This document shows positions 4,629 to 32,317 of a stretch of DNA of 64,000 bases, one piece after another. The position numbers were made by a program, and so were the translations under genes. Below the pieces are notes generated by a model. It was given only the letters and a program-made list of their open reading frames with translations, ran no database searches and had not been told where the DNA came from. This DNA comes from a bacterium. Its GTDB lineage: Bacteria; Zhuqueibacterota; Zhuqueibacteria; Zhuqueibacterales; Zhuqueibacteraceae. Location of the stretch: positions 64,001 through 128,000 of the forward strand of contig JBIOXB010000223.1 of NCBI GenBank assembly GCA_044869275.1, in the 5' to 3' direction. Numbering within the stretch: position 1 is the first letter of the stretch; each line of letters opens with the position of its first letter.

Positions 4629-4643
4629 CACAAGGAGAATATC

Positions 4644-7750: not shown

Positions 7751-7752
7751 AT

Positions 7753-7890: not shown

Positions 7891-7968
7891 AAAACAATTT
7901 TAATATCGCTTAGGCAAGCAGCTTGACCTTATAGAAAACGGCTTTGCGCGGCGAAGGAGTGAAAAGCC

Positions 7969-11588: not shown

Positions 11589-11632
11589 GCGCGCAACTGG
11601 TCGTCTGGACAATTGATAAGGAATTGCAGCAC

Positions 11633-15700: not shown

Positions 15701-16392
15701 AAGTGATGGGGCTGCTTTCTCAAAACATTGCCAAGATCGACGAGCACGGCCGCCGCGCGGATAGTATCGTCAAGGGCATGTTGCTGCATTCGCGCGGCGA
15801 ATCCGGCGAACGGCGGCCGGTGGACCTCAATGCCGTGCTCGACGAGTACGTGATGCTCGCGTATCACGGCATGCGCGGCACAGACGCGACCTTCAACGTC
15901 AAAATCGAAAAAGACTACGATCCCGCCGTCGGCCGGGTCGAGGTTTTTCCGCAGGACATTAGCCGGGTGTTTCTCAATCTCGTCAACAATGCTTGTTACG
16001 CGACGCATCAAAAAGCCCGAATGGGAGACGAGCAGACAGGGAGAGAAGGAGACCAGGCGAAAGGGAAGGATGGCATTGCCCCCCGTCCCCCCCTCTCGCC
16101 GTCTCCCACTCTTCCCGTTCGGCCTTACGCTCCGACCCTTTCCGTCTCAACCAAAAACTTGGGCGACAGAGTCGAAATCCGCATTCGCGACAACGGTACG
16201 GGCATTCCCGCCAGCGTGCTCAATAAAGTTTTTCACCCGTTTTTTACCACCAAGCCGGCGGGCCAGGGCACAGGACTGGGTTTGTCCCTCAGCTATGACA
16301 TCGTGGTGCACGAGCACAGCGGCGAGATCAAAGTGGAAACCAAAGAGGGGGAGTTTACGGAGTTTGTCGTGCGGTTGCCGCGTAGCGCGTAG
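12790..16392 (+). CDS. Sensor histidine kinase HK3: beta-propeller, Y_Y_Y, TM, HisKA, HATPase_c
   Basis: QNWAIVQD-type propeller start, KDYTNLPKGDYRFRVRA, PPWY+TM, H/N/G boxes. Confidence 0.95.
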   Translation: MIMHKNLPFVTLILVLVAFPTARAQNANAAAVPSPQIGSDRRAEGGRNEIGQPFIRNYSPKEYSGAHPQNWAIVQDQRGVMYFGNGLGVLEYDAVSWRLIALPNASVVRSLDLDVHGRIYAGAQGEFGYLAADALGQMHYVSLLAQVPPEDREFTDVWRTFVTEEGTYFQTATRLFRFTSAASSISPQDGTEGGVISQVGIKNAVMKIWKPTTRFNRASLVRGRLYIPQVETGIMAMVGDSLQLLPGTERFAEEIYAVLLPFDEAAGSSAREKILIATASNGLFLYDGATARPFVTAADDFLRASEIYRGALLRNGTFALATRQGGVAIVDRNGQARIINKETGLRVNKVYFVYPDRHGALWLGLENGISRVETPSPFSLYGESFGLKSTVYGMIKHQGKLYVSTNAGVFYLRLPASSAPGKIPKFLPVQGIAEQSWTLLALDGDLLVATGDGVFRINGDRAVPVKASVSASFVSLVLQRSRLNRNRIYVGLSDGLASLRYDASVAQWIDEGRAPGIYEQIWSIVENEEGALWLGTDAQGVIHLEFPAAEGSSSAARLPRSGTEKPEARWRNLKLARYGVAHGLAEGGVQVFAIGGSPIRAGKEYFVTSTGIFGFDRERQVFVPDSTFAVVGFGNTQEEYNLREDRQGDVWVNFGKESAVARRQNHGAYVIEKTPFLRFAEAPTSAIYPDEEEGVVWFGGADGLVRYDGAVAKDYAQDYAALIRRVIVNEDSVIFAGTITPPFSSEERAISILPHSNNALRFEFSASFYEAETENRFQSFLEGFDDHWSAWSKEAKKDYTNLPKGDYRFRVRARNIYHYPSSEAVFAFAILPPWYRAWWAYLAYVLAFSGGIAGLVGLRTRQLHARSRELEKTVQERTQEIRQQAVAIQSQADELEEKNREIIKTQEQLIVQEKLASLGQLTAGIAHEIKNPLNFVNNFAKLSVDLIVELREGFEKQKEKLDPAAKEDLQEVMGLLSQNIAKIDEHGRRADSIVKGMLLHSRGESGERRPVDLNAVLDEYVMLAYHGMRGTDATFNVKIEKDYDPAVGRVEVFPQDISRVFLNLVNNACYATHQKARMGDEQTGREGDQAKGKDGIAPRPPLSPSPTLPVRPYAPTLSVSTKNLGDRVEIRIRDNGTGIPASVLNKVFHPFFTTKPAGQGTGLGLSLSYDIVVHEHSGEIKVETKEGEFTEFVVRLPRSA

Positions 16393-16772
16393 CGCATGGC
16401 GTTTGAATTCTATCAACGAGATCATCAGCGTCGTGAAATCTTATTCATTATACCAGGTGATTTGAAAATTCACTGCAGTTACTCCCCCCATCTCAACCAG
16501 GGGACCCAAAGGGATCAGTCCTGCAAAAAAGCGAGTTCTGGCGTCCAAATTTATCACCTCCCAGCGAGTGAGTGTCTATTTAGAGTCGTAAGGCGTCTTT
16601 TGTGCGGTGAAATTCCATGCCGAGGAGGCGAAACGGAGAACGGCGGGCAGAGCATGCTTAAGCCAGGGTCAAATTTTAGTAAAGCTCGGAAGAAACACTT
16701 GCAATCAATCGAACTGCGAATCCACTAAGCGCTCCCATGCGCTCATGCAACATCACAATGGAGGCAATTCTC

Positions 16773-19700
16773 ATGGCGAACAAAATCTATGCATTGCTGG
16801 TGGGCATCAATGACTATGCTCCGGAAATCGGCAGGCTGGCCGGATGTCTCAATGATGTGGATCATTTTAAGGACTATTTGACCAGCGCTTTTGACAAAGC
16901 CAGTCTCGCCATTGAAGTGCTCAAAGAAGGCGAGGCCACGCGCGACAACATCATCAGACTGTTCCGCGCCCATCTCGGCCAGGCGAAGGCTGGTGACGTG
17001 GCCGTGTTCCAATATTCCGGCCATGGCGCGCGTTGGGCCGCTGCGAAGGAATTCAAAGAGTTCTATCCCGATGGCAAAGACGAGGGTCTGGTATGTCACG
17101 ACAGCCGCCGCAAAGACGGCACCTACCCCTTTGACCTGGCCGACAAAGAATTGGCGATGCTGCTTGCCGAGGTCGCAGCCAAAGATCCTCATCTTGCCGT
17201 TATTTTGGATTGCTGCCATTCCGGCTCCGGCACGCGCGACGTGGATGCGTTCACGCATTTGAAAGCGCGGCAAACCCACGAGGTTGCCGTGGAGCGTCCT
17301 CTCGACAGCTATCTTGACGGCCATTATGCCAAGCTGCGCCAACAGGGAAAAAAGTTGTCGATCCCGAGAAGCAAGCATATTTTATTGGCTGCTTGCGACC
17401 GCAAACAAAAGGCCTATGAGGCCACAGACCGCAGCGGGCTCTTTACCAGCACGCTGCTCAAGGTGTTGGAAAAATCCGGCAGCGATATCACTTATGCCGA
17501 TCTGTTCATGCGCTGCCGGGCGGAGATTCGCAAGGAAGCCGACAATCAGACGCCGCAATTCGAGGCCAACGAGAAGTTCAACGCCCTTGGCGGCTTTCTC
17601 GGGCGTAAGGCTTCTCACACAGCGCCTCGCTTCAGCGTGTATTTCAAGGATGGCAACTGGACTATCGATGCCGGTGCCTTGCACGGACTTCCCACTGCGC
17701 CGGAAAAAAGCGTCGGCTTGGCGCTTTATCCGGAAAATGAGCAGGCGCGTTTAGCCGGGCACGCGTCGACGGTTCAAGTGGGGCCGCAGAAGAGCGAGCT
17801 GCAGCTGGATTTTACCGGCGATCAAGCGGCGCGCTATTATGCCGAAGTCACCAGTCTACCGGTTGCGCCGATTCCGGTTTATGTCGATGGCGATGAGAAT
17901 GGCAAGACCATTCTCCGCAAGGCACTCAACCCTTCCATGGGCGTCGATTTAACTGACGTCGCCGAGGGCACCCGTTATGCGATCACCGCGCAAGAGGGAG
18001 TATTTCTGCTGAAACAGCGGGAATTGGATTTGCTCATCCAGGGCGTCAAGGGCGTGCTCGTGCGCGAGCGTAGCACGGGAAAAGAGGTGGCGACATATTC
18101 CGAAGAGTCCGCGCAAGTGGCGCTTGGCATTGTCAAGCAGGTTGCGCAATGGGAAAGAAGCCTTGCGCTGCAGAATCATGGAACGAAAATGGACACCTCG
18201 CTGGTTGACTTCATTTACACCGAGCAATTAAATGCCGGAAAGGAGTATGTCCATCCCTCGGGCGAGATTACGCTCGATTTGGTGAAATCCAAGGAACAAT
18301 GGCAAGAGATTCGGGGCAAATTCAAAGCGCGGAATAGCACTGAGCAAACGTTGCATTTTATTCTCGCTTATTTCTCCGCGTCGTATGGCATTCACATTTT
18401 GCGCAACGAAGAGGTTCCCCCGGGCAAAGAATTCGTTACTTTGTGGGGGGAGGATGAGAAGGACTATTTTTATTTGGAAGATCATGCCAATGAATCGCTG
18501 GAGAATTTCAAGCTGATTGTCAGCACTGAGCGGGTCGACGACTTTTTGTTGAGCCAGGATGATTTAGAACTCGGCAAGATCATCTCCTCTTTTCGTGCCG
18601 TGGGCACGATCAAGCCGATGAAAAAGTTGGTACATGAGAATGAATGGTTTACCAAAAGTATCCGCGTCAAAGTCGTGCGGCAACTCGACCAAGTGGGCGC
18701 GAAAGACGCGGGTCTGGCTAAAGGCAAGATCGTCGTCAAAGGCCATCCTACGCTCAAAGCCAATTTGAGTTTGAGCGCCGCCAAGGCTCCTTCTCGCAGC
18801 ATCGGGGAAGGAACTGATTTCTTCAAGGCTTTCGAGCGACAAGGCTTGGAGATGCTCAACTTTGCCGGCACGCGCGGCGATAACGAGAGCATATTGGAAT
18901 TGACCGATATTGAAAACGCTGAAGCGCTGGCAAAGAACCCGCTGGAGATTGACGTGAATGTCCCGCTCAATGCCGACGAGGGGATTCTCCCCCTGGTGTT
19001 CGACGGCCAGCACGTTTTGCTCGGCGGGGATACGTATAAAGACGAGCAGGGCAACACCCATATCAGCATCGACCACATTCCCGAGGTGCCGGACAACCGC
19101 CGCAGCGTTGGCAAGGCATTGAAGCTGTACTTTTTCAAAACTTATCTCAAGCAGGATAGCGTCAATCAATTGCGCTGGGTGGAGTACAAAGCCGACGGCA
19201 CGATAGCGCAGCACAAGACTATGATTGCCGAGAAAGTGAACGCGGCGCAGAACGTGGTGGTGCTGATGCACGGCCTCATCGGCGACACCGAAAACCTTGC
19301 CAAAACTCTGCGCATGATCAATGCCGGCGGTACAAGCCTCGATCAAAAATTCGATCTGGTGCTGACCTATGACTATGAAAACCTCAGCACGCCGCTGGCA
19401 GAGACGGCGCTCGATCTCAAAAAGAAGTTGGAAGCGGCCGGATTCGGCGCGAATGACAACAAAAAGCTTACACTCTTGACGCATTCCATGGGCGGCCTGG
19501 TGGGGCGCTGGTTTATCGAGCGCGAAGGCGGCAACACCATGGTCGATCATCTCGTCATGTGTGGCACGCCCAATCAGGGCTCGCCGTTTGGCAAAATCGA
19601 CGCGGCGCGCAAAATCTTGAACGTTTTGACCGGCGTGGCGATGAATTATGTTCCCGCGCTCATCCCGTTCAACGGCGCCATCATATTCCTGCTGAACCGT

Positions 19701-20057
19701 TCGAAAAAAATCACGCCCACGCTGGAGCAAATGAACTCGTCTTCCGAATTTATCACCACGCTCAACAGCAGCGGCGATCCCGGCATCCGCTACACCCTTC
19801 TCGCCGGGGACGTGGAGGCGTATCAGGAACCCTCGGATCAATTCTTTCAGCAGCTGTTGGCGAAAGCTGGAAAAGGTTTTGTGTTCAGCGCCCTTTTTGG
19901 CAGTGGCGCACACGATCTAGCGGCCGGCGTGGAGAGCGTGCTCGGCATCGCGGGCTCGCGCAATCCCATGCCCAAGCGCGGCAATGTCGCCTGCCATCAT
20001 TTGAATTATTTTGTTTCCGAAGCTGGGCAGAAGGCGCTGGCGGGAGTGGAGTGGTGA
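16773..20057 (+). CDS. Caspase (peptidase C14, metacaspase-like) fused to a C-terminal alpha/beta-hydrolase
   Basis: ALLVGINDY, YSGHG (His), LDCCHSG (Cys); C-terminal VLMHG, THSMGG nucleophile elbow, GTPNQGS, HLNYF; GGAGG RBS before ATG 16773. Confidence 0.92.
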   Translation: MANKIYALLVGINDYAPEIGRLAGCLNDVDHFKDYLTSAFDKASLAIEVLKEGEATRDNIIRLFRAHLGQAKAGDVAVFQYSGHGARWAAAKEFKEFYPDGKDEGLVCHDSRRKDGTYPFDLADKELAMLLAEVAAKDPHLAVILDCCHSGSGTRDVDAFTHLKARQTHEVAVERPLDSYLDGHYAKLRQQGKKLSIPRSKHILLAACDRKQKAYEATDRSGLFTSTLLKVLEKSGSDITYADLFMRCRAEIRKEADNQTPQFEANEKFNALGGFLGRKASHTAPRFSVYFKDGNWTIDAGALHGLPTAPEKSVGLALYPENEQARLAGHASTVQVGPQKSELQLDFTGDQAARYYAEVTSLPVAPIPVYVDGDENGKTILRKALNPSMGVDLTDVAEGTRYAITAQEGVFLLKQRELDLLIQGVKGVLVRERSTGKEVATYSEESAQVALGIVKQVAQWERSLALQNHGTKMDTSLVDFIYTEQLNAGKEYVHPSGEITLDLVKSKEQWQEIRGKFKARNSTEQTLHFILAYFSASYGIHILRNEEVPPGKEFVTLWGEDEKDYFYLEDHANESLENFKLIVSTERVDDFLLSQDDLELGKIISSFRAVGTIKPMKKLVHENEWFTKSIRVKVVRQLDQVGAKDAGLAKGKIVVKGHPTLKANLSLSAAKAPSRSIGEGTDFFKAFERQGLEMLNFAGTRGDNESILELTDIENAEALAKNPLEIDVNVPLNADEGILPLVFDGQHVLLGGDTYKDEQGNTHISIDHIPEVPDNRRSVGKALKLYFFKTYLKQDSVNQLRWVEYKADGTIAQHKTMIAEKVNAAQNVVVLMHGLIGDTENLAKTLRMINAGGTSLDQKFDLVLTYDYENLSTPLAETALDLKKKLEAAGFGANDNKKLTLLTHSMGGLVGRWFIEREGGNTMVDHLVMCGTPNQGSPFGKIDAARKILNVLTGVAMNYVPALIPFNGAIIFLLNRSKKITPTLEQMNSSSEFITTLNSSGDPGIRYTLLAGDVEAYQEPSDQFFQQLLAKAGKGFVFSALFGSGAHDLAAGVESVLGIAGSRNPMPKRGNVACHHLNYFVSEAGQKALAGVEW

Positions 20058-20479
20058 GGCTGGATGCCGGATCCTGGATGCTGGATCCTGGGGGCCGTGC
20101 ACGGTTAACTTGAGAATCACACCCTCAACCATGTCATTCTGAAAGAATCTTGCCACGAGCTGGGCACAATGCTTAGACGGTGCTTTATCCGAGCACCTGG
20201 GAAGCTTCAGCCCGTGCGAGCACTCTCGTTTCACCGCTCAGCGGTGGAACGCATGCAATGACGCTCTGCGTCCCAGAATGCTAGTCCATTGCTCCATTAC
20301 AAGTGAAATCTGTGCTTAGAGAAGTTTTCTGTTTTGATTTCCGTGGGAGTTCAGAGTAGCCGGAATTCGAAGCACAAAGCTCAAAGGGTGTTTTGAGATC
20401 TGCAATTCGAATTTTTATTTCGCTAAGCGCCTGTCCCGGATTTATTGGCGAGCTGAAAACCGATGCCCTGCGGGCGGCG

Positions 20480-20601
20480 CCAACGGATAGATCAAGACCA
20501 ACGGATGAAGGGACGAAAATGTTTTGTCCGTTGGCCTTAATCTATCCGTTGATGAAAAAAGCCAGAGTATTATATTGAATTTAATTTTCTAATTTGCCTA
20601 A
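20480..20601. repeat. CCAACGGATAGAT 18-nt-period hairpin repeat, copy C
   Basis: CCAACGGATAGATCAAGACCAACGGAT...TCCGTTGGCCTTAATCTATCCGTTG; similar to 26348-26460. Confidence 0.8.
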
Positions 20602-20628
20602 CCCAGTTTATCAAAAGAAGGAACTGCT

Positions 20629-21498
20629 ATGATCACCGAAGACTCATTGAAACAAATTATGCCTAAACTCCCGGACGCCAAGCGTGCGGCATTGCTGCCG
20701 GCATTGCAGAGCGCAATGAATGAGTTCGGTGTGAACACGCCGAAGCGCGAAGCCGCGTTTCTGGCGCAAATCGCCCACGAGTCCGGGGAATTAACCGTCT
20801 TTGCCGAGAACCTGAATTACTCGGCCAAAGGCTTGATGGCAACCTGGCCCAAACGCTTCCCCGATCCCGCCACAGCGCAGAAGTATGAGCGGAATCCGGA
20901 GAAGCTGGCCAACTACGTTTATGCGAATCGCGTTGGCAACGGCAATGAAGCGAGCGGCGACGGTTGGCGGTTTCGCGGCCGTGGCCCCATTCAAATTACC
21001 GGACGCGAGAACTATCAAAAATATGGCAGTCGACTGAATGTCGATATCATCAATAATTCCGACAAAGCCGCCACGCCGGAGGTCGGGTTTCGCGTTGCGG
21101 GTTTGTATTGGAAAGAAAACGGCTTGAATGAGCTTGCCGACAGTGAAATGTTCGAGACCATCACGAAGCGGATCAATGGCGGAACCAAAGGCCTCGAGGA
21201 GCGCAGGCAATACTACACACGCGCGAAAACTGTGTTGGGCGTGCCGCTCTCTCGCGGCATGGCGATACCGGAATCCATGCAAGACATTGATCTCGTTCCA
21301 GAGTTCACGCGCGGGCGCGAGGCGCAAGAAGATACCAAGCCGCCGGTCAGGAAAACACGCAAGGCGCGCGTGAAAAAAAGCAAACGTGCGGCCGCAAAGA
21401 AAAAAGTTGCCAAGAAGAAAGTGGCCAAGAAAACCGCCGGCAGCAAAACGCGCGCACGGGCAAAGGCAAAGCCCAAAGCCGCCAAGCGCCGGAAATAA
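20629..21498 (+). CDS. Glycoside hydrolase family 19 (endolysin-type lysozyme/chitinase) with Lys/Ala-rich C-terminal tail
   Basis: AFLAQIAHESG, ENLNYS, GDGWRFRGRGPIQITGRENY, ITKRINGG; tail KKKVAKKKVAKK. Confidence 0.9.
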   Translation: MITEDSLKQIMPKLPDAKRAALLPALQSAMNEFGVNTPKREAAFLAQIAHESGELTVFAENLNYSAKGLMATWPKRFPDPATAQKYERNPEKLANYVYANRVGNGNEASGDGWRFRGRGPIQITGRENYQKYGSRLNVDIINNSDKAATPEVGFRVAGLYWKENGLNELADSEMFETITKRINGGTKGLEERRQYYTRAKTVLGVPLSRGMAIPESMQDIDLVPEFTRGREAQEDTKPPVRKTRKARVKKSKRAAAKKKVAKKKVAKKTAGSKTRARAKAKPKAAKRRK

Positions 21499-21542
21499 GC
21501 ATTGAGGCATTATAGTCGAATTCGTACGCCATATGGCGCTCA

Positions 21543-21690
21543 AAGTCAGAACAAAATTCTGAAAATTTCTTCGCCAATGAAGGAGAAGCGACCAACGAAT
21601 TCAGGAAAATCCGTTGGTCGTTTTTTGATCCGTTGGAGCGTTTTTGGTCTAAAGTTGCTCCGTAAGGAGTTTTGGTTTTCAGCTTGTCTG
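21543..21690. repeat. Dispersed composite repeat, copy B
   Basis: Homologous to 10542-10677. Confidence 0.85.
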
Positions 21691-22086
21691 AAAACATCGG
21701 AAGACAGAAAGATGGAGGACAGAAAAATGTTTGCCGTTTGCTCCATGCTGTCATTGTCCACTTCCCTGGCTTAATCGCGAACGCCATTTTTCTGTCTTTC
21801 ATTTTTCTGTCTTGGCCTTTGGTTAAGCCAATTGAACAATTCCAAGATAAGAATTCTCTATCTCTCTTTGTTCAGCCGCCCGCAGAGCTTCGATTTCTAG
21901 CTTGTTTGAAAATCTGAGGTAGAAGGTTAGTCATCTGAAACAGGTTCTCTCCCACGGAAATGGAACTGCCACGGAAAAATTGTTTTCAATTCCGTGTGAG
22001 TTCCATTTCCGTGGGCGATTTTTGGGCTTGGGCTTCAATTTGTTTCGCACTCAGTTTTTATAGCTTGCTTACGTGCAAAATAACCT

Positions 22087-25000
22087 ATGGTACAATCAAA
22101 CGATCAGCAAAACACCAAACCCGTCATCTTCCTCGCCTTCGCCCAAGACCGCGTCGAAGGCGGCGCGTATTTGCGCAACCTGCCCATCGAGCTGGACGGC
22201 ATTCTAGAAGCGTTGCAAAAGGCGGAGCAGGCAGGGCTGTGCGAGGTGAAACATCGATCCAATACCACGGTCAAGAATATTCTCGACATCTTCCAGCAGT
22301 ATCAGGATCGCATCGCCATTTTTCATTACGGCGGACATGCTGACAGCTACGAGCTTTTGCTCGAGTCCTTGACCGGCGAGCACGCGATGGCGCACAGCGA
22401 AGGGCTGGTTTCTTTTCTTGCCAAACAAAAAAGTCTGCGGCTCATTTTCCTAAACGGCTGCTCTTCTCGGCAGCAGGCATTGGACTTGACCGAGGCGGGC
22501 GTGCCGGCCGTAATCGGCACTTCGCAAAAAATCGACGATGAGATCGCAACCAATTTGTCAGGGCGCTTTTACAAAGGCCTCGCTGCCGGCCTCTCGCTTG
22601 ATCGCGCCTGGGCGGAAGCCATCGATCAAATCAAAGTGGAGAAAGGCACCAGCAATACCCGCGCACTGCATTGGAAAGGCAAAGTTGAAGCCAGCGACGG
22701 TATTCCGTGGGACATCTATTATCGCAAGGGCGCGGAGATTGTTAAGGAATGGAATCTGCCGGCGGCTGCGAATCAACCTCTGTTTGGCTTGCCGCTGCCG
22801 GAAGTTTATTACCGCAAGTTGCCGGCTGCGCCGTTTCTCTGGTTGAATGATTTCAGGAGAGAAGACGCCGCCATCTTTTTCGGCCGCGGCGCCGAGATTC
22901 GGAAACTGTACACGCAGTTGACCACCGGCATGCAACCGATCATTCTGTACTACGGAAAAGCCGGCGTGGGAAAATCTTCCCTGCTGCAAGCCGGCCTGGC
23001 GCCGCGCATTGAAAACGATTATGCCGTCAAATATATCTGCCGCCTCCCGGCGAAAGGATTGACCGGCACTTTGCTGCAGGCCCTGCAAGAAGTAGGTGAC
23101 GAGCTCGGACTGCCGCCGGTTGAACCTGCCGAGAAAGACACCCTCCGCACCAAAATCGAGGAGCTGCAAAAAGCTTTGGAGGGCAGCGCGGGATTCACCC
23201 GGCAAGTGCTGGAAAGCGAGCTGCAAAAACTCACCGCGCTTGCCGGCGAGAGCCTTTTGTTTTCAGCACATTGGCGGCGGATCGAAGATAAAACCAACCG
23301 GCCATTAGTGGTCATGCTCGATCAAGTGGAGGAAAAATCTACCCGCCCCGCGCCTGACGACAGAGAATCTGCCGATGAATTGGAGATCTTCCTCGAGACC
23401 GTGCGGAGTATTTTTGACCAACAAGACCTGCCCCTGCGGGGAAAACTCATTCTCAGTTGCCGCGAAGAATATCAGCCCGCGATGCGTGCGGCCTTGCAAG
23501 CGTTTTCACTGCCTTTTGCGGAAGCATTTCTTCCGCCACTGGGCTGGCAGGGAATTGTCGAAGCGACGGAAGGTGTGACCACGCATCCTTCGACTCGCGA
23601 TCAGTATCACCTGGAAATTGAAAATTACAAGGGTAGTAATTTGCCGGAGATCATCGCCGACGATATGCTGGAAAGCGAGGAATCTCCGCTTGCGCCGATG
23701 CTGCAAGTGGTGCTGACCGAGTTATGGAGAGGCGCAGTTAAAGAAAACACCAAAGCGCCGCGTCTGAGCGTGCGGCAATATCAGGAGCTCAAGCAATCGG
23801 GCGCCAGCATGGGTGAATTTTTCAAACAGCGCATGGCGGAAGTGCAGGAGTGGCAGAAAACCGTCGTGACGTCCGGTTTGACACTGGACTTGCTCTACCG
23901 GCATATCACGCCCGCCGGTGCTGCCGCGAGCCTGAGCCGGGAGCAACTGCATGACATCTACTGCGACCGCGAGCAGGTCATTGATCAGCTTATGGCGAAG
24001 TGCCAAGACCTTTATCTGTTGACTGATTTTCAGCTGCGCGGCACCAGCCTGGCGCATCATCTGCTCGCGCCGGTGGTGATCAAGGAATACAGCAATTCCG
24101 TTATGCCCGGCCAGCAAGCCGCCCGCATTTTGAACAGCAAGATCGAGGAATTTCGTGCCAATGAAAAAGACATCTGGCTGAATGATGCGGATTTGGAAAT
24201 TGTGGAAAACGGCAAAGCCGGCATGCGGCAGTTGCATGCCGATGAAGAGAAGCTGTTGCAGATCAGCCGGGAGCGCAAGGCGCAGCGGGAAAAAGAGCGA
24301 AAGCGCAATCGCGTCATACGCAACGTTTTGGCAACTTTCATTTTCCTGTTTGCCATATTAGCCGGTTGGCAATGGCAAGTGTCGGAGCGCAACTATAAGC
24401 AAGCCAAGGCGAGCCAACTGGCGTTCATCGCGGGCGAGGCTTTCAATTCCGACAACACGAAAGCGCTGCGCATTGCCGAAGCGGCTTACGCGATTTTGGG
24501 TGAGCATTCGCCGGCGGCGGTGACGCGAACGTTGAGTGAGATTTTTCATTCCCAAGACCTGAGGCCGTTTTATGCGGCGAATTTTCCTCACGATGAACCC
24601 GTCAATACGGCGGTGTTTTCGCCGGATGGCCAGCAAATTCTCACCGCCTCGGAAGGCGGGTCTGCCAGGCTCTGGGATCGGCGCGGAGAATTGATCCACA
24701 CTTTTGATCATGAGGGCTACGACGTCACCTCCGCCGCCTTTTCCCCCAATGGCAAGCAAATTCTTACGCTCGCCAACGATATCGTCAGGCTTTGGGAAAT
24801 GAATGGGAAACTTGTCGATGGCGATACGCTGCAACCCGAGCAAGCAACCGACTTAGCCGATTTATCGACCGACGGCATGCGGATTCTAAAAGTGTTTGCC
24901 GGTAGCGATGATGAAAAATACCGCGCGCTGATCCATCGTCTCAAGCAAGAAAATGGAATTGCCGAAGTCATTCCCGCTTCGAACCGGCAGCGGATTCTCA

Positions 25001-26328
25001 CCATCTCATCCGATGGCACTGTGACGCTGCTGAATGGGGAAGGGAAAATCCTGAAGGCAATTGATAGCAGCGTAGTTTCTGCCGCTTTGTCGCCCGACGG
25101 CAAGCGCCTGTTGACCGTGGCCTTCGACAGCCTCAGCACCATCCGGTTTTGGGACGAGCAGGGAAGTTTCCTCGGAAGTTTCAAGTATAGAGGAGAAGTG
25201 AACAAAGCCGCTTTCTCCCCGGACGGCAGGCAGATTCTCACCGCCGCCGCCGACCATACGGCAAAACTCTGGGAGGTTTCACAGAAATTCACCCAGCACT
25301 TGCCGCGCCACAGTTTGGGAGTCTCCACCGCGGTGTTTTCTCCAGATGGGAAGCGTATCCTCACTGCTTCACACGATGGATTCGCCCGGCTTTGGGATGA
25401 ACAAGGAAATCCGCTCGACAGTCTCAAGCATGGCGGCGTGGTGAACGCGGCGGTTTTTTCACCTGAAGGCAATCGAATTCTAACGGCGGCTAGGGACGGC
25501 ACTGCCCGGCTGTGGCTGCGCGATGAGGCGCGAGTGGTCAACTTGCCGCATCGGGGAGAAGTCAACTCCGCGCTGTTCTCTCCCGACAATGGCAGCCGGA
25601 TTCTCACGGCTTCAAGCGACAGCACCGCCAGATTATGGACTGGAAACGGCGTTCCGATTGATACACTTGAGCATCACGGTGAGGTGCGTGCCGCAGTCTT
25701 TTCGCCCGACGGCCGGCAAATTCTGACGGCGTCATCCGACGGCACGGCGACATTGTGGTGGGCAAGCGGCGTTTTGATCAGGATATTCAAGCATGATGAC
25801 GAAGTTATTTCGGCAGTCTATTCGCTGGACGGGAAGCGGATTTTGACCGCCTGTGCGGATGGCGCGGTAAGATTATTTGCGGTCAATGGTGATTCGCTTG
25901 GAACTTTTAAGCATCATGATAAAATCAAGCTCGCGGTTTTTTTGCCTGAGGGCCGGCGCCTGTTGACGGCAAGCAGTATGGTCTGGCTCTGGGACGAAGC
26001 GGGGAAGCCGCTCGTTAGTGTCGCACACACTGCGGCGGTCACCTCGGTGGATTTCTCCCCCGATGGCAAGCACCTGCTTACGGCTTCAATCGACCAAAGC
26101 GCCAAGCTGTGGAACCTACAAGGCGAGTTGCAGGCAGATTACGACAAACACGAACTGCCGGTGAATTCGGCGCGTTTTTCACCCGACGGCGAAAAAATTA
26201 TCACCGCCTCGGTCGATGGGCAAGTGATGATCTGGTGGACACCGCGAGCCATTTACGATTGGCTGAAAACCGCGCCGCTTTACCGGATCACGCGGCAGGA
26301 AGAAGAATTGTATGGAATCGTGCAGTAG
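22087..26328 (+). CDS. CHAT protease - STAND NTPase (nSTAND1-like) - TM - WD40 repeat protein
   Basis: FHYGGHA and FLNGCSS CHAT dyad; FFGR, GKAGVGKSS Walker A, LDQVEE Walker B; TM helix; many FSPDGxxILTASxDxTARLW repeats. Confidence 0.93.
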   Translation: MVQSNDQQNTKPVIFLAFAQDRVEGGAYLRNLPIELDGILEALQKAEQAGLCEVKHRSNTTVKNILDIFQQYQDRIAIFHYGGHADSYELLLESLTGEHAMAHSEGLVSFLAKQKSLRLIFLNGCSSRQQALDLTEAGVPAVIGTSQKIDDEIATNLSGRFYKGLAAGLSLDRAWAEAIDQIKVEKGTSNTRALHWKGKVEASDGIPWDIYYRKGAEIVKEWNLPAAANQPLFGLPLPEVYYRKLPAAPFLWLNDFRREDAAIFFGRGAEIRKLYTQLTTGMQPIILYYGKAGVGKSSLLQAGLAPRIENDYAVKYICRLPAKGLTGTLLQALQEVGDELGLPPVEPAEKDTLRTKIEELQKALEGSAGFTRQVLESELQKLTALAGESLLFSAHWRRIEDKTNRPLVVMLDQVEEKSTRPAPDDRESADELEIFLETVRSIFDQQDLPLRGKLILSCREEYQPAMRAALQAFSLPFAEAFLPPLGWQGIVEATEGVTTHPSTRDQYHLEIENYKGSNLPEIIADDMLESEESPLAPMLQVVLTELWRGAVKENTKAPRLSVRQYQELKQSGASMGEFFKQRMAEVQEWQKTVVTSGLTLDLLYRHITPAGAAASLSREQLHDIYCDREQVIDQLMAKCQDLYLLTDFQLRGTSLAHHLLAPVVIKEYSNSVMPGQQAARILNSKIEEFRANEKDIWLNDADLEIVENGKAGMRQLHADEEKLLQISRERKAQREKERKRNRVIRNVLATFIFLFAILAGWQWQVSERNYKQAKASQLAFIAGEAFNSDNTKALRIAEAAYAILGEHSPAAVTRTLSEIFHSQDLRPFYAANFPHDEPVNTAVFSPDGQQILTASEGGSARLWDRRGELIHTFDHEGYDVTSAAFSPNGKQILTLANDIVRLWEMNGKLVDGDTLQPEQATDLADLSTDGMRILKVFAGSDDEKYRALIHRLKQENGIAEVIPASNRQRILTISSDGTVTLLNGEGKILKAIDSSVVSAALSPDGKRLLTVAFDSLSTIRFWDEQGSFLGSFKYRGEVNKAAFSPDGRQILTAAADHTAKLWEVSQKFTQHLPRHSLGVSTAVFSPDGKRILTASHDGFARLWDEQGNPLDSLKHGGVVNAAVFSPEGNRILTAARDGTARLWLRDEARVVNLPHRGEVNSALFSPDNGSRILTASSDSTARLWTGNGVPIDTLEHHGEVRAAVFSPDGRQILTASSDGTATLWWASGVLIRIFKHDDEVISAVYSLDGKRILTACADGAVRLFAVNGDSLGTFKHHDKIKLAVFLPEGRRLLTASSMVWLWDEAGKPLVSVAHTAAVTSVDFSPDGKHLLTASIDQSAKLWNLQGELQADYDKHELPVNSARFSPDGEKIITASVDGQVMIWWTPRAIYDWLKTAPLYRITRQEEELYGIVQ

Positions 26329-26347
26329 GGAAGATTTTAAGAAATCT

Positions 26348-26460
26348 CCAACGGATAGATTAAGTCCAACGGATAAAACTCTTAGTCTTTTCATCAGTTG
26401 GTCTTAATCTATCTGCTGGCGATAAAAAGCTGGAGTTTTATTCTAAGTTTGTTTGCCTAA
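26348..26460. repeat. CCAACGGATAGAT hairpin repeat, copy D
   Basis: Similar to 20480-20601, including the downstream AAAAAGCxxGAGT and TTTGCCTAA. Confidence 0.8.
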
Positions 26461-26800
26461 GCGCCTATGCCGAATTTTCAACCGCGCTGAAAACAGAAGC
26501 TCTTCAAGCAACCTTAAATCAGAAGCTTTTGAACACGAATAACGCGGATGACACGGATCGTCGCAGATTTTTGTTTTTGCTGCGAATGAGCAGTTGTAAA
26601 ACAAGAAAGCCTAAGGCATACAGTCAAAAATAATTGGAAGCCAAAATCATTGAAAGAGTCTCAATCATTTTGACTTTAACACTCCCTCGAAACTTTCATA
26701 TTCTTGCTCTATCCGTGTTCCTCCGCGCAATCCGTGTCATCCGCGTTCAAAAAATCAAGAAACTCCCAAAATATCATTCTGTGTTTGTGTGCTTTATGGC

Positions 26801-28327
26801 TTAATAGTACGCAAAATCAGTCAAGATAGCGCAGGCTTCCATCAAATAATTGAAGAGCCGCTCCTGGCTCGTCATCTCTTCCCGGTTATTCACGACAATC
26901 ACCACACCGAGAAAATCATTTTGGTCGATTGTGAGCGTGGCAAAAAGCTCGGCGACGATGGATTCACCGTCGGCGCCATAGACTACTCGATCCTTGAGCG
27001 CACCAAGATAGGGATCGTCGGGATCATCCATCCAATCTTCAATCTCATCTTCATTATTTTCTTCCACTACCCAGTTCCGTCCATCGCTCACCATGTATTG
27101 CTCAAACCAATCCCATGCTGCTTTGCTATTTTCTACGGAGGCCGTAGCCTGAACTGATAAAAACATGGTCGTGCCGGCGCGGGGGCTGGAGACCTTGATC
27201 AGGGTATGGCCGCCCTCTTGCACGGCGCTCAATTTGCTGCCGGTTGGAATGGCAATGGTCGCCCCGTTTTCCTCGTCCTGAAAAACGTCGAGGGACTGGC
27301 TGAACAACTCTTGCAGCGTGATCCTGCCATTTTCAAAGTGCTCTTCGTCTTGCAGCAGCTCCTGGATGTACTTTTGGTCCTCCTCAAACATGGTCTCATA
27401 AATCTCCTGGAAGGGCGCGCGATAGTCCAGCGCTAAAACCAATTTGTCGCCGTTGTCATCGGCAAATCTAAAGGGCTGCTCTTGGGCAGCCGCTAAAGCA
27501 CGCGCCAGCTCGGCGGATTTTGGGTCCAGATGGGGATTGTCTGCCCGCAGGCCGCTATAAAGCCTTTCAGAGGTGCATGCGCTTGCGGGAGCCGCGGTTG
27601 ATCCCGCGCTCATTAATTTGGTAAAATTGCCGGCCGCAGGTATGGCCCAAATAAAGCCTTTGCCATTGATAGGCGGGCCGCCGTCAACCATGCCGACGAT
27701 ATGGCCTTGATAAGTCAGCGGTGAGCCGGAATGCGCCTTGCGGATGTTTTTTTCCTCAAATTTAAAAACACTGGTCTTCAAGGTCGGGTAATTGCTTTGG
27801 CCATCCGAGCAGAGCGCCTGCGCCAAAGCGGCCGAGTTCTGTTCGAGCCGGTTATCCAATTGCTCCAAAGGGACGGCGCGATCGAGCTTGGTTTCCTTTT
27901 TATCCATTCTGGATATCTTCTCCGGAGCCTCCCAAAAGTTGAGCGGCGTGTCCATGGGAGCATCTCCCGGATAGACTTTGAGTGCGGGAATGTTCGGTGG
28001 GGTGGAAGCCTGCAAGCGCAAAAGCGCCAGATCAGCCGGCGTATAGATTTTTTCAAGCTTGGCGGGAAATTCTTGATTTTTCCACACGACGGTTATCGGC
28101 GACCTGCCGGCAACGACGTGAAGCGCGGTGATGATGTTGCCGGGGCTGCCATAAGCCACACCGTAACCTGAGGCCTTGCCGGCATGGACGAGCACGACAG
28201 ATTCCTGCTGGCCTGCAGCGGGTGCAACCGCCAATAACAAGGCGGCCCAAAAGAGACTGATGCAGATTGCCAAGGAGTAAACATGGACCCTCCGAGTGAC
28301 ACAGTTCATAACACAACTTTGTCTCAT
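26801..28327 (-). CDS. Secreted trypsin-like serine protease with acidic C-terminal domain
   Basis: Signal-peptide-like segment; ITALHVV (His), ADLALL (Asp), AHSGSPL (Ser). Confidence 0.8.
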   Translation of the reverse strand: MRQSCVMNCVTRRVHVYSLAICISLFWAALLLAVAPAAGQQESVVLVHAGKASGYGVAYGSPGNIITALHVVAGRSPITVVWKNQEFPAKLEKIYTPADLALLRLQASTPPNIPALKVYPGDAPMDTPLNFWEAPEKISRMDKKETKLDRAVPLEQLDNRLEQNSAALAQALCSDGQSNYPTLKTSVFKFEEKNIRKAHSGSPLTYQGHIVGMVDGGPPINGKGFIWAIPAAGNFTKLMSAGSTAAPASACTSERLYSGLRADNPHLDPKSAELARALAAAQEQPFRFADDNGDKLVLALDYRAPFQEIYETMFEEDQKYIQELLQDEEHFENGRITLQELFSQSLDVFQDEENGATIAIPTGSKLSAVQEGGHTLIKVSSPRAGTTMFLSVQATASVENSKAAWDWFEQYMVSDGRNWVVEENNEDEIEDWMDDPDDPYLGALKDRVVYGADGESIVAELFATLTIDQNDFLGVVIVVNNREEMTSQERLFNYLMEACAILTDFAYY

Positions 28328-28590
28328 CCACCGCCTCCGCCACTGCGCACCGGTTCTCCTCTGCTGCGCCTGAATTTGATCTTGTAGGTCTGCTCACCAT
28401 TTGTTCCCGTCACTGTGCCGACCTGCTGTCCCGTGTCTTTGTCTATGACGCTCCACACTTCACCTTCTACTGTGCTTTGCTTGGATGATTCCGATGGCGC
28501 CAAGTCGATCACCAGAGCGGTGCCGCGATGAACACTCACAACGTACACGCTCTCGTTCACGAACGTAATGCTCCCCTGTGGAGCTGGCAT
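28324..28590 (-). CDS. Small beta-rich protein, VHL beta-domain-like, ending RRSRGEPVRSGGGGG
   Basis: Strong AAGGAGG RBS; ITFVNES...LAPSES..QST..GEVWSVID resembles the bacterial VHL-beta pattern; stop overlaps the trypsin ATG (ATGA). Confidence 0.7.
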   Translation of the reverse strand: MPAPQGSITFVNESVYVVSVHRGTALVIDLAPSESSKQSTVEGEVWSVIDKDTGQQVGTVTGTNGEQTYKIKFRRSRGEPVRSGGGGG

Positions 28591-28651: not shown

Positions 28652-31600
28652 ATGATTCGCAAGCCAAATCTCTTTAGCAGATACCACTTTGAATCCGGGC
28701 CGCCGCCCATGAACCTGCATCTTCCTTTTGTCCTTTGCTCGAGCGGTATTTTTTATTGCGTCGCGTTGTCGGCCCAAACTTTTTCAACCGGCACCGGCGA
28801 GCAGCTTAAATTTGAGCATCTTTCGGTGGAGCAAGGACTTTCACAAAACACGGTGCAGTGTGTCTTGCAAGATCGCCAAGGATTCATGTGGTTTGGCACG
28901 CAGGACGGGCTGAATAAGTATGATGGATTCGGTTTTGTGGTCTACAAACCCGATCCGCAGAGTCCTCTGAGCCTGAGCGACAATCGGATCGAGTCGCTCT
29001 ATGAAGACCGCGCGGGAGTGCTGTGGATTGGAACGCGAAACGGCGGGCTTAATCAATTCGATCCGGGAACAGAAACGTTCCGGCGTTATCAACACGACCC
29101 CCAAAATCTCCAAAGCTTGAGCAACAATAACATCATCTCCATTTACGAAGATCGTTCGGGAATGCTATGGATCGGAACCGAAAACGGACTCAATCAACTT
29201 GATCGTGCAACCAAAACATTCAGGCGTTATCAACACCAGCCCGAGAATCCGCACAGCCTGCCGCACAATGCGGCCAGCTCAATTTACGAAGACCAGGAGG
29301 GAGTGTTGTGGGTTGGTACCTGGGGTGGCGGGCTTTCTCATATGAGCCGGGAGGATCGGGCCACAGTTACGTTCCGGCATTTTCAGTATGATCCCGAAAA
29401 TCCTCAAAGCTTGAGCGACAATTGGGTAAGATCAATCTCTGAGGACAAAAACGGGGTGCTGTGGGTTGCTACTAAAAGCGGCTTGGCTTGCTTAACGCGA
29501 GAGAATCGAAAGGCGGGAACCTTCCAGCGTTATCAACGCAACCGCCAAAACCCCCTGCGCTTGAGTCACAATGACGTTTGGCCACTCTATATCGACCGGT
29601 CCGGCGTGCTCTGGATCGGAACGCATGGTGGGGGACTCAATCAGTTCGATCAAGCTGCTGGAACCTTCCGGCATTTTGGGCACGACTCGCAGAATTCTCA
29701 TAGCTTGAGTAGCGATGAAGTGTTCTCCATCTATGAAGATCAATCCGGGGAAATATGGATTGGCACCAGGGAGGGAGTCAATCGCTTCAATCGAACGCCA
29801 GAACCTTTCCGGCATTACCAGCACGACGCTAATAACCCTCGCAGCTTGAGCGACAATTCCATTTGGTCGATCCACGAAGACCACTCTGGCAGCGTCTGGA
29901 TTGGAACCTTGAGTGGCGGCCTCGATCAATTTGATCGCGCGACCGAAAGCTTCAGACACTATCAAAATGACCCGAATGATCCTTATAGCTTGAGCAACAA
30001 CTCGATCTGGGCTACCTATGAAGATCGCGCTGGAGAGATGTGGGTTGGTGCGCAAGGGGGGCTTTCACGCATGAGCTGGGATGGCCGCGGCCAAGCAAGA
30101 TTTCGGAACTATCAACATGATCCCCAGAATTTCCAGAGCTTAAGTCATAACTGGGTCACCTCAATTTATGAAGACTCCGTTCAGCCGGGAGTGCTATGGA
30201 TTGGAACCTGGGGTGGCGGACTCAACCGCTTTGATCGCACCACCGGAACCTTCCGACATTTTCGACTCGATGCCAACGATCCGCGCAGCTTGAGCTCAAA
30301 TGCAGTCTGGTCGATTTATCACGATCAATCGGGAAGGTTATGGATTGCAACCGAGGCCGAGGGGCTTAATGAATTTGATCGCGCCACCGAAACCTTTCGG
30401 CGCTATCAACACGAACCCATGAATCCGAATAGCTTGAGTAGTAACTCGATCTGGTCAATTTATGAAGATCGCAATCGTGTGCTGTGGCTTGGTACCAGAG
30501 CGGGGCTCAATCAATTCGATCCCCGCAAGGAAACTTTCAAGCACTACCGGGAAAAAGACGGTTTGCCGAATGATGTGATCTACGGCATCTTGGAAGATGA
30601 TCACGGCAATCTCTGGCTGAGCACCAATAAAGGCCTATCCAGATTCAACCCCCAAACAGAGATTTTTCGAAACTTTGACGTGCGTGACGGGTTGCAGAGC
30701 AATGAGTTTAACGCGGATGCCGCTTTTCGCAGCCGCAACGGAGAAATGTTTTTTGGTGGAATCAATGGTTTCAATGTTTTTCATCCCGACAGCATCAAAG
30801 ACAATCCTTACGTTCCGCCCGTGGTCATCACCGGGCTGAAACGATACAACACCGACGTTCCGGAGGGCATTGCCCTCGCGGAAAAAGGCATGGCAGCAAG
30901 ATCAGGCATCGAGCTTTCCTATAAAGACGAAATTCTTGTCTTCGAGGTGGCGGCGCTCAATTATCGCAACAGCGCAAAGAATCAATATGCCTATAAATTG
31001 GAAGGATTGCACGACCGGTGGATTCAGCTTGGCACCAAGCGTGAGATCACTTTCACCAATCTCGATCCCCGCGAGTACACGTTGCGAGTGAAAGGCTCCA
31101 ACAACGATGGCGTTTGGAATGAAGAGGGCACGTCGCTCAAAATCACCATTACGCCGCCCTGGTGGCGAACGCGCTGGGCGTATGCGCTGTATGGGTTGCT
31201 GTTGATCGCCGGCATTTTCGCCACGGATCGGATGATGCGCCGGCGGCTGCTGGCTAAAGAACGGGCGCACGCGCAAATCCGTGAGGCCGAGCTGCGTGCG
31301 CGCGCGGCGGAGGCGCAAATCCAGGTGGTCGAGACCCAGGCGAAAGTCCTGCAAGCAGAGAATGAACGCAAGGAATCGGAATTGCAGAGGGCGGCCGAAC
31401 TTAAATCGGCTTATGAGGCTTTGGGAAAGGCTCATGAGCACTTGCAAAACACGCAGCAGCAGCTTATCACCCAGGCAAAATTGGCTTCGCTGGGCCAGCT
31501 CACCGCCGGAGTCGCACACGAGATCAAGAACCCCTTGAACTTTGTGAATAATTTTGCCGCGCTGTCGGTGGATTTGGCCAAGGAGCTGCGGCAGGAGATA

Positions 31601-32317
31601 ACGAAGATCGAGGATGGTGGAGCGAGGATCGTGGATCGTGAAAGCTTTGCAAACGTCGAGGGGATTTTAGAGGTGCTGATTCAAAACGCTGAGAAGATCA
31701 ATCATCACGGCAAGCGCGCGGATAACATTGTGAAGAGCATGATGCAGCATGCGCGTGGCGCGTCGCAAGAACGTGAGCTGTCGGATATCAATCAATTGTT
31801 GGACGAAGCGGTAAATTTAGTGTATCACGGCCTGCGCGCTCAGGATAGATCCTTCAATGTTTCGATCGAAAGAGCCTACGATGCCAACTTGAGCAAGCTC
31901 AGCGTCGTGCCGCAGGGCATCAGCCGCGTGTTTTTGAATATGATCAACAATGCGTGCTACGCGGCGCACCAAAAGGCGAAGGAGAGAACGGGTGACAGGG
32001 AGAACGGGAGAAACGGAGAGGGAAATTTTCCTCCCATTCCCCCATTCTCTCCAACGCTTGCAGTAGCAACAAAAAACTTGGGCGACCAAATCGAAATCCG
32101 TATCCGTGATAACGGGGGCGGCATTCCGCCAGATATTCGTGAGAAAATTTTTGATCCTTTTTTCACCACGAAACCCACCGGGCAGGGCACGGGCTTGGGC
32201 TTGTCGATCAGTCATGATATTGTCGTTTTGGAGCATAATGGCGAGATTAAAGTAGCAACGGAAGAAGGAAAGTTCACAGAGTTCATAATCCTGCTGCCGC
32301 TGAGCGCAAGGCTGTGA
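28652..32317 (+). CDS. Sensor histidine kinase HK4: beta-propeller, Y_Y_Y, TM, coiled coil, HisKA, HATPase_c (start may be 28709)
   Basis: [13 protein letters not shown], many YEDRxGxLWIGT blades, [24 protein letters not shown] boxes. Confidence 0.95.

Follow-up and report, generated by a model that had tools for sequence, protein, structure and literature searches.

A caspase-hydrolase fusion gene linked to a protease-STAND gene in a Zhuqueibacteraceae genome and across bacterial phyla

According to the available text of Kaur, Burroughs, Iyer, and Aravind (2020, eLife; PMC7159879), the caspase in the bacterial conflict systems described there always occurs with a neighboring alpha/beta hydrolase. 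In the part of the 2025 preprint by Evans et al. that is available (PMC12642450), LcCaspase of Lysobacter capsici cuts LcHydrolase at R73 and R117, the two cuts, each between Arg and Gly, activate the hydrolase, and the Arg-Gly motif is kept in 161 LcHydrolase homologs. The same text states that such proteases are fused to sensors that include beta-transducin repeats and STAND NTPases, that the comparable protease-effector modules that were tested act in phage defense, and that the substrate of LcHydrolase is unknown. A 2026 Nature paper, available in part (PMC13581612), describes bacterial STANDs that resemble Apaf-1, with WD40 sensors and with caspases at the N terminus. Here we analyze a stretch of 64,000 nucleotides (nt) (the window; positions 64,001 to 128,000 of contig JBIOXB010000223.1, assembly GCA_044869275.1), which is part of a 6.67-Mb metagenome-assembled genome (MAG; 94% complete) of a member of the Zhuqueibacteraceae. 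Between positions 16773 and 28590 it carries genes for a caspase fused to an alpha/beta hydrolase (the effector), a GH19 muramidase, a CHAT-nSTAND1-WD40 protein with a transmembrane (TM) helix (the sensor), a serine protease, and a protein of 88 amino acids (aa); the catalytic residues are intact. Gene calls were checked with an open reading frame (ORF) map and with Pfam, PADLOC, and NCBIfam family scans (Table 1). An earlier note on this DNA had named these domains and found their catalytic residues intact, which Pfam and the ortholog alignments bear out. It had recognized no named system in the combination; the core is nevertheless a described kind of module, the caspase/alpha-beta-hydrolase pair, which was predicted in 2020 and appears in the available parts of both PMC7159879 and PMC12642450.

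The effector ORF is open from position 16737, and its orthologs begin at M13, which lies at nt 16773. This is most likely the start of the gene, giving a protein of 1094 aa, and residue numbers for the effector count from there. The protein matches Peptidase_C14 (E = 1e-24) and, after ∼540 aa of beta-rich domains, the alpha/beta-hydrolase family DUF7379 (E = 1e-13). Among 48 sequences, the caspase residues H84 and C148 do not vary. By sequence, the nearest solved relatives of the caspase part are TbMCA2 (8.7e-10), AtMC4, AtMC9, and Yca1, and Foldseek placed the effector's N terminus with metacaspases (AtMC9, 1e-12; also GSU0716). The domain is metacaspase-like. The earlier note gave cleavage after Arg as established for bacterial meta- and orthocaspases, and cleavage after basic residues is reported for orthocaspases in the available part of PMC6426788. 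E104 and D110, candidate residues of an acidic S1 pocket, are also invariant and align near the metacaspase "PVD" stretch. In the hydrolase, the HG oxyanion motif lies at residues 833 and 834, and the triad of S905 (in HSMGG), D1048, and H1076 is invariant in the ortholog alignment. Foldseek matched the C terminus with lipases of Proteus, Pseudomonas, and Burkholderia (∼1e-7); as modeled, the hydrolase is lipase-like. The AlphaFold2 (AF2) model of the whole effector, made from 48 sequences, has a mean predicted local distance difference test (pLDDT) value of 84.6 and a predicted template modeling score (pTM) of 0.74. A complex prediction for the caspase domain, residues 586 to 1094, and the 88-aa protein as partner scored 0.18 against a mark of 0.32, which speaks neither for nor against a complex. 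In the literature searched we found no mention of DUF7379, no paper describing a fused caspase-hydrolase chain, and nothing relevant on KSB1 together with caspases.

The neighborhood of the effector gene was compared within the lineage and across phyla. Forty-one related genomes were searched, and full-length or nearly full-length orthologs of the effector were found in 11 (the window's own genome excluded); 10 neighborhoods were compared. One of these stretches, L019, comes from a genome flagged as unpublished, and no conclusion rests on it alone (L and G numbers are our labels for loci and genomes). The sensor ortholog is present in 9 of the 10 stretches, the tenth having a caspase-nSTAND1-WD40 protein instead. 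The 88-aa protein is likewise present in 9, a histidine kinase that we call HK2 in 8, GH19 in 7, and the serine protease in 6, with a seventh copy just outside the G016 stretch, beside the sensor gene. The order of the genes varies. The 88-aa gene abuts the effector gene, with nothing between them, in three genomes, and three other genomes have an inserted extra pair of split CHAT and STAND-WD40 genes.

A scan of a collection of species genomes with the ortholog alignment matched at least 670 stretches, and relatives of the fused caspase-middle-hydrolase protein are encoded in 613 of the 670 matches listed. Neighbors were analyzed in the best 66 loci, using hidden Markov models (HMMs) built from our own alignments and a crude ORF caller. 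By their record titles, these 66 loci are from KSB1, Planctomycetota, Acidobacteriota, Beta-, Gamma-, and Alphaproteobacteria, Calditrichota, Bacteroidota, Gemmatimonadota, and Desulfobacterota. The HMMs found an nSTAND part in 39 of them and CHAT in 28; the core gene was found in 61, and 42 of these 61 have a CHAT or STAND partner. When five loci of the window's lineage were set aside and at least 5 kb was required on both sides, 22 well-flanked loci remained. The partner is present in 19 of the 22, is directly adjacent in 13, and lies downstream on the same strand within 100 nt in 9. The caspase-hydrolase and protease-nSTAND1 reading frames often overlap or nearly abut.

Of the 44 partner proteins, 41 were typed by running Pfam on their first 340 aa (the three omitted are from the window's lineage or the flagged genome). 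Thirteen are CHAT-nSTAND1 and 14 are Peptidase_C14-nSTAND1 proteins; another 10 have nSTAND1 alone, mostly adjoining a separate CHAT gene, 3 have a protein kinase domain, and 1 matched nothing. Because of this typing, we define the conserved unit as the caspase-hydrolase together with a STAND NTPase that carries or adjoins a second clan-CD protease. The co-occurrence that the earlier note had supposed is thus seen across phyla for these two genes. The GH19, serine protease, 88-aa protein, and histidine kinase genes are accessories that turned up nowhere but in KSB1 and Calditrichota. Two sets of unusual partners were seen among the same loci. In L068, L075, and L076, all from Pirellulaceae, the STAND partner has an N-terminal Ser/Thr protein kinase domain and no protease, and two of the three have a separate CHAT gene alongside. 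In Pacificimonas pallii (L078, positions 7245 to 9962), a gene for a CHAT-OmpA fusion stands directly upstream of caspase-hydrolase, CHAT, and nSTAND1 genes. L078 is an apparent four-gene operon in a cultured isolate, which could be a tractable model organism.

The earlier note had proposed that arginines in linkers are cleavage sites. We scored arginine conservation in an alignment of 51 full-length caspase-hydrolase sequences and ranked each of the 1094 columns by its conservation above its surroundings ("conserved island" rank). R675 ranks 2nd, R166 7th, R608 8th, R701 19th, and R777 30th. Arg thus accounts for 5 of the top 30 island columns, against a share of 4.4% in the protein as a whole (binomial P = 0.009); the remaining 25 hold residues of a structural kind, such as Gly, Leu, Trp, and Phe. 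R675 is Arg in 51 of 51 sequences, with T (20) or S (13) at P2 and G (19) or S (18) at P1′. At R608, 43 sequences have Arg (84%) and 7 have Lys (R or K, 98%), and G comes next in 27; no flanks in the protein vary more than those of R608, at 2.7 to 2.9 bits. R701 is Arg in 48 (94%), preceded by T in 37 and followed by G in 42. R777, which stands just ahead of the hydrolase core, is Arg in 50 (98%) and followed by S in 46, and it is invariant in stand-alone hydrolases too. R166 lies 18 aa past the catalytic Cys and is Arg in all 51, with a flank entropy of 2.3 bits; it is a candidate p20/p10 self-processing site.

The AF2 model of the effector falls below a pLDDT of 50 in only two segments, aa 607 to 622 and aa 674 to 680, and these are the R608 and R675 loops. 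Structural residues would not commonly fall in just the two low-confidence loops of a model, as these conserved arginines do. The beta unit between the two loops is, in the model and by comparison with LcHydrolase, from which a middle fragment is excised, a candidate "plug" that may be cut out. Shorter proteins encoded on long contigs show that the part of the chain beyond about residue 570 can also be a gene of its own, with the same arginines. Two divergent stand-alone hydrolases of ∼450 aa, P0116 and P0104, start five residues ahead of the R675 equivalent, with MPQ, a small residue, and then [TS]-R-D, as if the gene began at the predicted cut point of the fused form.

Recomputed from the translations, every arginine motif that the earlier note listed is at the nucleotide it gave. 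Four of them, GTRD, FRAV, RRSV, and VRSG, fall outside the [ST]R[GSA] pattern under which they had been grouped, and GTRD does not lie in a linker but inside the caspase domain, in the invariant block CCHSGSGTR. The idea that the arginines are better conserved than their flanks stands for the effector, where R608, R675, R701, and R777 are conserved islands and R608 and R675 lie in variable, predicted-disordered loops; for GH19 and the 88-aa protein it finds no support in the shallow alignments available.

By analogy, the conserved-arginine idea matches the logic found experimentally for the caspase/hydrolase module. In both cases a caspase-like Cys protease is paired with a lipase-fold alpha/beta hydrolase, conserved Arg sites followed by a small residue flank or interrupt the hydrolase, two main sites, exposed in the effector by prediction, bracket a small piece, and STAND or beta-propeller sensors carry a protease. 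The effector differs from LcCaspase and LcHydrolase in that caspase and hydrolase are one 1094-aa chain, in that P1′ is G or S and not strictly G, and in that the neighboring STAND protein carries a protease as well, CHAT or caspase, giving a two-tier layout. This second clan-CD protease suggests an initiator/executioner arrangement. With protease and zymogen on one chain, cut sites are easy to predict, as the only disordered loops each open with a near-invariant Arg, and the hydrolase substrate therefore becomes directly testable. A mapping of R608 and R675 onto R73 and R117 of LcHydrolase by offset was contradictory and was dropped.

The sensor matches nSTAND1 (E = 2e-24; 87 bits versus a cutoff of 27) and WD40 (E = 2e-80). 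Its CHAT domain (E = 2e-11; 44 bits versus a cutoff of 24) was seen only when the first 250 aa were scanned alone. CHAT occupies aa 1 to 190, nSTAND1 aa 249 to 647, with the Walker A motif GKAGVGKSS at residue 290, and the WD40 propellers aa 830 to 1413. The CHAT residues H80, H84, and C125 are invariant in the ortholog alignment. Just past CHAT is R192, in the TRAL motif that the earlier note had singled out; it is indeed invariant, all 15 of the CHAT-nSTAND1 proteins aligned, which come from several phyla, having Arg there, with G next in 9 and A in 3. It borders a stretch with many indels, and among 340 columns it ranks 8th. A TM helix at aa 746 to 765 (nt 24322 to 24381), with KERKRNR just before it, recurs with preceding basic residues at the same place in the partners of four other loci, L029, L037, L046, and L054; the loci with this helix are from Pirellulaceae, Burkholderiales, Calditrichia, and another KSB1-like genome. 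Because the conserved helix stands between the NTPase and WD40, we predict that the WD40 part faces the periplasm, with CHAT and nSTAND1 in the cytoplasm. The sensor resembles the Apaf-1-like or Avs-type STANDs, as far as the available part of PMC13581612 describes them, in its N-terminal clan-CD protease, intact Walker A, and C-terminal WD40, and it differs from them in having the TM helix and, in the window's lineage, CHAT instead of a caspase at the N terminus. The helix suggests a sensor that reads the periplasm, which would be unusual for STAND immune receptors.

The GH19 protein scores 35 bits with Glyco_hydro_19 (cutoff, 25.5), and its catalytic domain aligns end to end with phage endolysins (PDB 9ms6, 1.9e-54; also 9eoi and 4ok7). 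E51, E54, and E60 are invariant in seven sequences. The muramidase (aa 1 to 205) is followed by a linker containing R209 and T227-R228-G229 and by a Lys/Arg/Ala-rich tail of ∼55 residues (aa 235 to 289); a hydropathy scan found no signal peptide. The GH19 signature, the conserved glutamates, and the lack of a signal peptide are shared with phage GH19 endolysins. It differs from them in being chromosomal and in an operon with a protease-STAND gene, in its linker with two invariant arginines and its polycationic tail, and in having one relative fused to nSTAND1-TM. Eleven loci carry this GH19 subfamily, and in 10 of them a protease-STAND gene comes next downstream, after a gap of 3 nt in six and, once, with a caspase-type sensor; GH19 is tightly linked to the sensor gene. 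We found no paper describing a GH19 protein linked to a STAND protein, in searches none of which was aimed at this link. A KSB1 endolysin-type GH19 tied to a sensor, and once fused, would be a new effector class for such systems.

The fused relative is encoded in L091 (genome G010, contig C364, positions 3080 to 5227, minus strand), where a 716-residue frame reads nSTAND1-TM-GH19, with its GH19 part 43% identical to the window's. A CHAT gene comes before it, and a stand-alone GH19 gene and a CHAT-STAND fragment come after. The frame is possibly a "Rosetta stone" fusion of sensor and muramidase; G010 is a fragmentary genome (82% complete, 970 contigs). In the window, unusually long spacers on both sides of GH19 are occupied by three imperfect inverted repeats of 25 to 29 nt, 90 to 92% complementary (20481 to 20551, 21701 to 21813, and 21948 to 22018); in relatives, the spacer between GH19 and the sensor gene is 3 nt. 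The repeats may be inserted hairpin elements or regulatory sites.

From the domain architecture, the linkage, the arginine sites, the folds, and the precedent of LcCaspase and LcHydrolase we conclude that the two-gene core is probably a protease-gated cell-death or defense module of the caspase/alpha-beta-hydrolase type. The sensor would be a membrane-spanning STAND NTPase, and the effector a metacaspase-like, Arg/Lys-specific protease joined to a lipase zymogen. A cue acting on the WD40 part would lead to oligomerization of the STAND part and turn on the CHAT protease, and active CHAT would trigger the effector's own caspase domain. Since the P1 Arg of the effector is kept whether the neighboring sensor has CHAT or a caspase, the simplest reading is that the effector's own caspase makes the cuts and the sensor protease acts upstream. 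The effector would be cut after R608 and R675, and possibly after R701 and R777, with Gly or Ser next after the Arg. Removal of the 67-residue beta plug would then free the esterase/lipase, which would damage the cell, most likely its membrane. GH19, cytoplasmic, with its polycationic tail and presumably cotranscribed with the sensor, would reach the wall after the membrane was breached, perhaps after being trimmed at R209 or R228. Proteolysis-gated death effectors are an emerging main logic of bacterial immunity, with parallels to the caspase pathways of animals. The hosts of this module are uncultured, which gives heterologous tests their value.

Several points weigh against this reading. 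We infer all of the proteolysis, and the topology of the sensor comes from hydropathy alone. R701 and R777 sit in confidently modeled coil and may, judging from the model, be structural. The spacing between sites is 67 and 76 aa here versus 44 aa in LcHydrolase, and the sites lie upstream of the hydrolase core, with two further ones, instead of inside an enzyme of ∼300 aa; the likeness between LcHydrolase and DUF7379 was judged from the description of the former. The partner gene is missing in 3 of the 22 well-flanked loci. Six-frame searches of the 66 loci found GH19 and the serine protease in 3 loci each and the 88-aa protein in 4, only in the window's lineage and Calditrichota. A GH19 of the same subfamily in G018 (59% complete) keeps the FTRG motif and the tail amid metabolic genes. 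All of the genomes are MAGs, and the related ones are not independent samples. No classic defense gene was found in the 64-kb window, and PADLOC matched its generic "caspase" model and a repeat model without naming a system, so a role in defense is conjectural. Finally, the [ST]R[GSA] motif, which the earlier note had taken to recur across the five proteins, occurs 8 times versus 5.2 expected from residue shuffles (P = 0.15). As a raw pattern it is at chance level, and we dropped its enrichment as evidence; GH19 is the only one of the proteins enriched for it (4 versus 0.6 expected, P = 0.003).

Some of these points would also follow if the genes were independent neighbors in a signaling-rich region and their conserved arginines had structural or catalytic-support roles. 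The window is full of Reg_prop kinases and other signaling genes, and the region is signaling-rich and not a defense island; the lack of a system named by PADLOC, the chance-level motif count, the shuffling of gene order among relatives, and the fact that GH19 is most similar to phage endolysins fit this explanation as well. It does not account for the linkage of the caspase-hydrolase with protease-nSTAND1 across phyla in overlapping or nearly abutting frames, for the 3-nt gap between GH19 and the sensor gene in six loci and the nSTAND1-TM-GH19 fusion, or for the conserved arginines at the two low-confidence loops. We regard independence of the genes as rather unlikely and keep the protease-gated module as the preferred reading.

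The serine protease was called a trypsin in the earlier note. It has a His-Asp-Ser triad, H70/D99/S200, which is invariant in the alignments, and it is HtrA-like. Its Trypsin_2 match is below the cutoff (22 versus 27.6 bits; a homolog from Calditrichia passes at 29 bits), and its family profile matches Deg1, DegP, DegS, and HtrA1 over the His-Asp half only (best E = 3.9e-6). A signal peptide (aa 1 to 39) precedes the protease domain (aa 40 to 250). Pfam scans found no PDZ domain in the protein and no match for the C-terminal domain of 258 residues (aa 251 to 508), for which Atlas gave nothing above 0.81. Proteases of the HtrA/DegP group prefer aliphatic P1 residues. We predict from the sequence that the protease is periplasmic, HtrA-like, and not trypsin-specific, and because of this location and specificity it is unlikely to be a step in a cascade. 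A metagenome scan with the serine-protease profile confirmed 1 of 173 pattern matches, at a locus of the window's own lineage, and so gave no independent test of linkage.

The 88-aa protein, which falls in no known family, is modeled by AF2 as a seven-strand beta sandwich with a pLDDT of 86. Its tail (aa 78 to 88), which starts at R77-G78 and has a Gly-rich end, is below 50; R75 and R77 are invariant. Foldseek matched the model to pVHL chains (E = 1.7e-4; template modeling score, 0.67), and Atlas gave VHL clusters at 0.95. The protein is thus predicted to resemble the VHL beta domain, a peptide-binding sandwich; bacterial VHL-like minidomains beside death proteases seem to be undescribed. A ubiquitin-like reading of the Gly-rich C terminus was ruled out, the fold being a VHL-like beta sandwich and not a beta-grasp. 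As in the Trypco/Pepco-trypsin pairs (Kaur et al. 2020; Evans et al. 2025) and bacterial gasdermin-protease systems, a gene that overlaps a serine-protease gene encodes a small, beta-rich protein whose C-terminal tail looks cleavable. In contrast to those systems, the protein has a VHL-beta-like fold and no Trypco or gasdermin family match, the protease is secreted whereas the 88-aa protein has no signal peptide, and the 88-aa gene follows the caspase-hydrolase gene and HK2, not the protease. A Trypco/Pepco reading was rejected, as no family match appeared at E values up to 10 (8 members) and the topology is also unfit. Gasdermin families had no match among the proteins scanned in 11.4 to 34.3 kb, and an NCBIfam scan of the proteins gave subthreshold matches only.

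The earlier note had joined these proteins in one cascade, in which CHAT, caspase, and serine protease are all Arg-specific, free the lipase and GH19, and process the 88-aa protein by way of shared [ST]-R-[GSA] linkers. The five genes are kept together in 6 of the 10 related stretches (one of them from the flagged genome) and in one metagenome locus, the 88-aa and serine-protease genes overlap by 4 nt in the window, and invariant arginines are present in GH19 (R209 and R228), in the 88-aa protein (R75 and R77, with R77-G78 at the edge of the disordered tail), and after CHAT (R192). Set against this, the serine protease has a signal peptide that its putative substrates lack and carries no [ST]R[GSA] motif. 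With the window's sequence as query it was not found in three genomes that do have the caspase-hydrolase gene, G021 (97% complete), G025 (91%), and G008 (78%), and GH19 was not found genome-wide in G016, G021, or G025. In the three genomes in which the 88-aa gene abuts the effector gene, there is no serine protease between them. R209 and T227-R228-G229 of GH19 are invariant, but other linker residues are equally so (seven close sequences, giving low power), and the Arg sites of the 88-aa protein are no more conserved than their flanks (in a shallow alignment). A single Arg-specific cascade of three proteases is quite unlikely.

A larger scheme can be built on the two-gene module that we prefer. 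It would be a bacterial "extrinsic death pathway" in two tiers, in which an envelope-spanning STAND receptor with periplasmic WD40 propellers signals to its cytoplasmic CHAT "initiator" and this to a metacaspase "executioner" with its own lipase zymogen, while the Arg-directed activity also trims the cytoplasmic GH19 and the VHL-like protein at Arg-Gly sites that they share, giving lysis without a holin. In that case the cue might be made by the coinherited HtrA-like protease, and membrane breach would be coupled to digestion of the wall. We think the full scheme distinctly unlikely.

The same biochemistry might instead serve regulated autolysis, envelope stress, or development and not antiphage defense, under two-component or partner-switching control and with the HtrA-like protease making the signal for WD40. 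HK2 is a conserved neighbor, also at a Calditrichaeota locus, and possibly regulates the module; the HK2, 88-aa, and effector genes keep together as a trio in KSB1 and at that locus. A Calditrichia locus has a histidine kinase and a response regulator-PP2C gene together with the sensor and serine protease. The serine-protease and sensor genes converge in the window, in six related stretches, in G016, and in L046 and L090, one of these pairs being at a Calditrichia locus with a caspase-type sensor. The predicted extracytoplasmic position of WD40 and the lack of a surrounding defense island also suit such a role. Any such signal is hypothetical, however, and the comparable protease-effector modules tested in the available part of PMC12642450 act in phage defense. 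Histidine kinases are so numerous here (four in 64 kb) that adjacency to one is weak evidence. A role in autolysis, envelope stress, or development is unlikely, and a death or defense module gated by proteolysis remains our preferred reading.

Table 1. Positions in the window of the genes, domains, and candidate sites discussed
Feature	Position	Strand	Basis or remark
Caspase + alpha/beta-hydrolase effector, 1094 aa	16773..20057	+	Pfam, ortholog alignments, AF2, Foldseek
Caspase (C14) domain, aa 1-280, dyad H84/C148	16773..17612	+	Pfam, alignment
Loop aa 607-622, opens with R608 (FRAV)	18591..18638	+	Conservation, pLDDT <50; candidate cleavage site 1
Four-strand beta unit aa 609-675, 67 aa	18597..18797	+	pLDDT ∼90 between two low-confidence loops; candidate plug
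Loop aa 674-680 with R675 (SRSI)	18792..18812	+	Conservation, pLDDT <50; candidate cleavage site 2
R701 (T-R-G)	18873..18875	+	Conservation; coil, pLDDT ∼80
R777 (R-R-S)	19101..19103	+	Conservation; just before hydrolase core
Alpha/beta-hydrolase core, aa 821-1094	19233..20054	+	DUF7379, LCAT, PGAP1 matches
GH19, endolysin type	20629..21498	+	Pfam, PDB endolysin similarity, alignment, hydropathy
CHAT-nSTAND1-TM-WD40 sensor-protease	22087..26328	+	Pfam, alignments, hydropathy
HtrA-like secreted serine protease	26801..28327	-	Weak Trypsin_2, signal peptide, profile search
88-aa protein, VHL-beta-like	28324..28590	-	AF2, Foldseek, Atlas, alignment
HK2, Reg_prop/Y_Y_Y sensor histidine kinase	28652..32317	+	Pfam; divergent from 88-aa gene
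Response regulator-PP2C phosphatase	11624..12793	+	Pfam; context, possible regulator
Second Reg_prop histidine kinase	12790..16392	+	Pfam; directly upstream of effector gene, possible regulator

The surroundings of the locus add a few minor observations. Between the upstream kinase and effector genes lies an ORF of 110 codons (16396 to 16728, plus strand) that matched no family; its composition is odd, and it is unlikely to be a gene. Four paralogous Reg_prop/Y_Y_Y kinase genes lie within the 64 kb, at 1020 to 4628, 12790 to 16392, 28652 to 32317, and 34300 to 38139, and the window also has genes for a response regulator-cyclase, PrsW, an RsbW-like kinase, and the response regulator-PP2C protein. 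Homologs of both the response regulator-PP2C gene and the upstream Reg_prop kinase gene are present at the Calditrichia locus L046.

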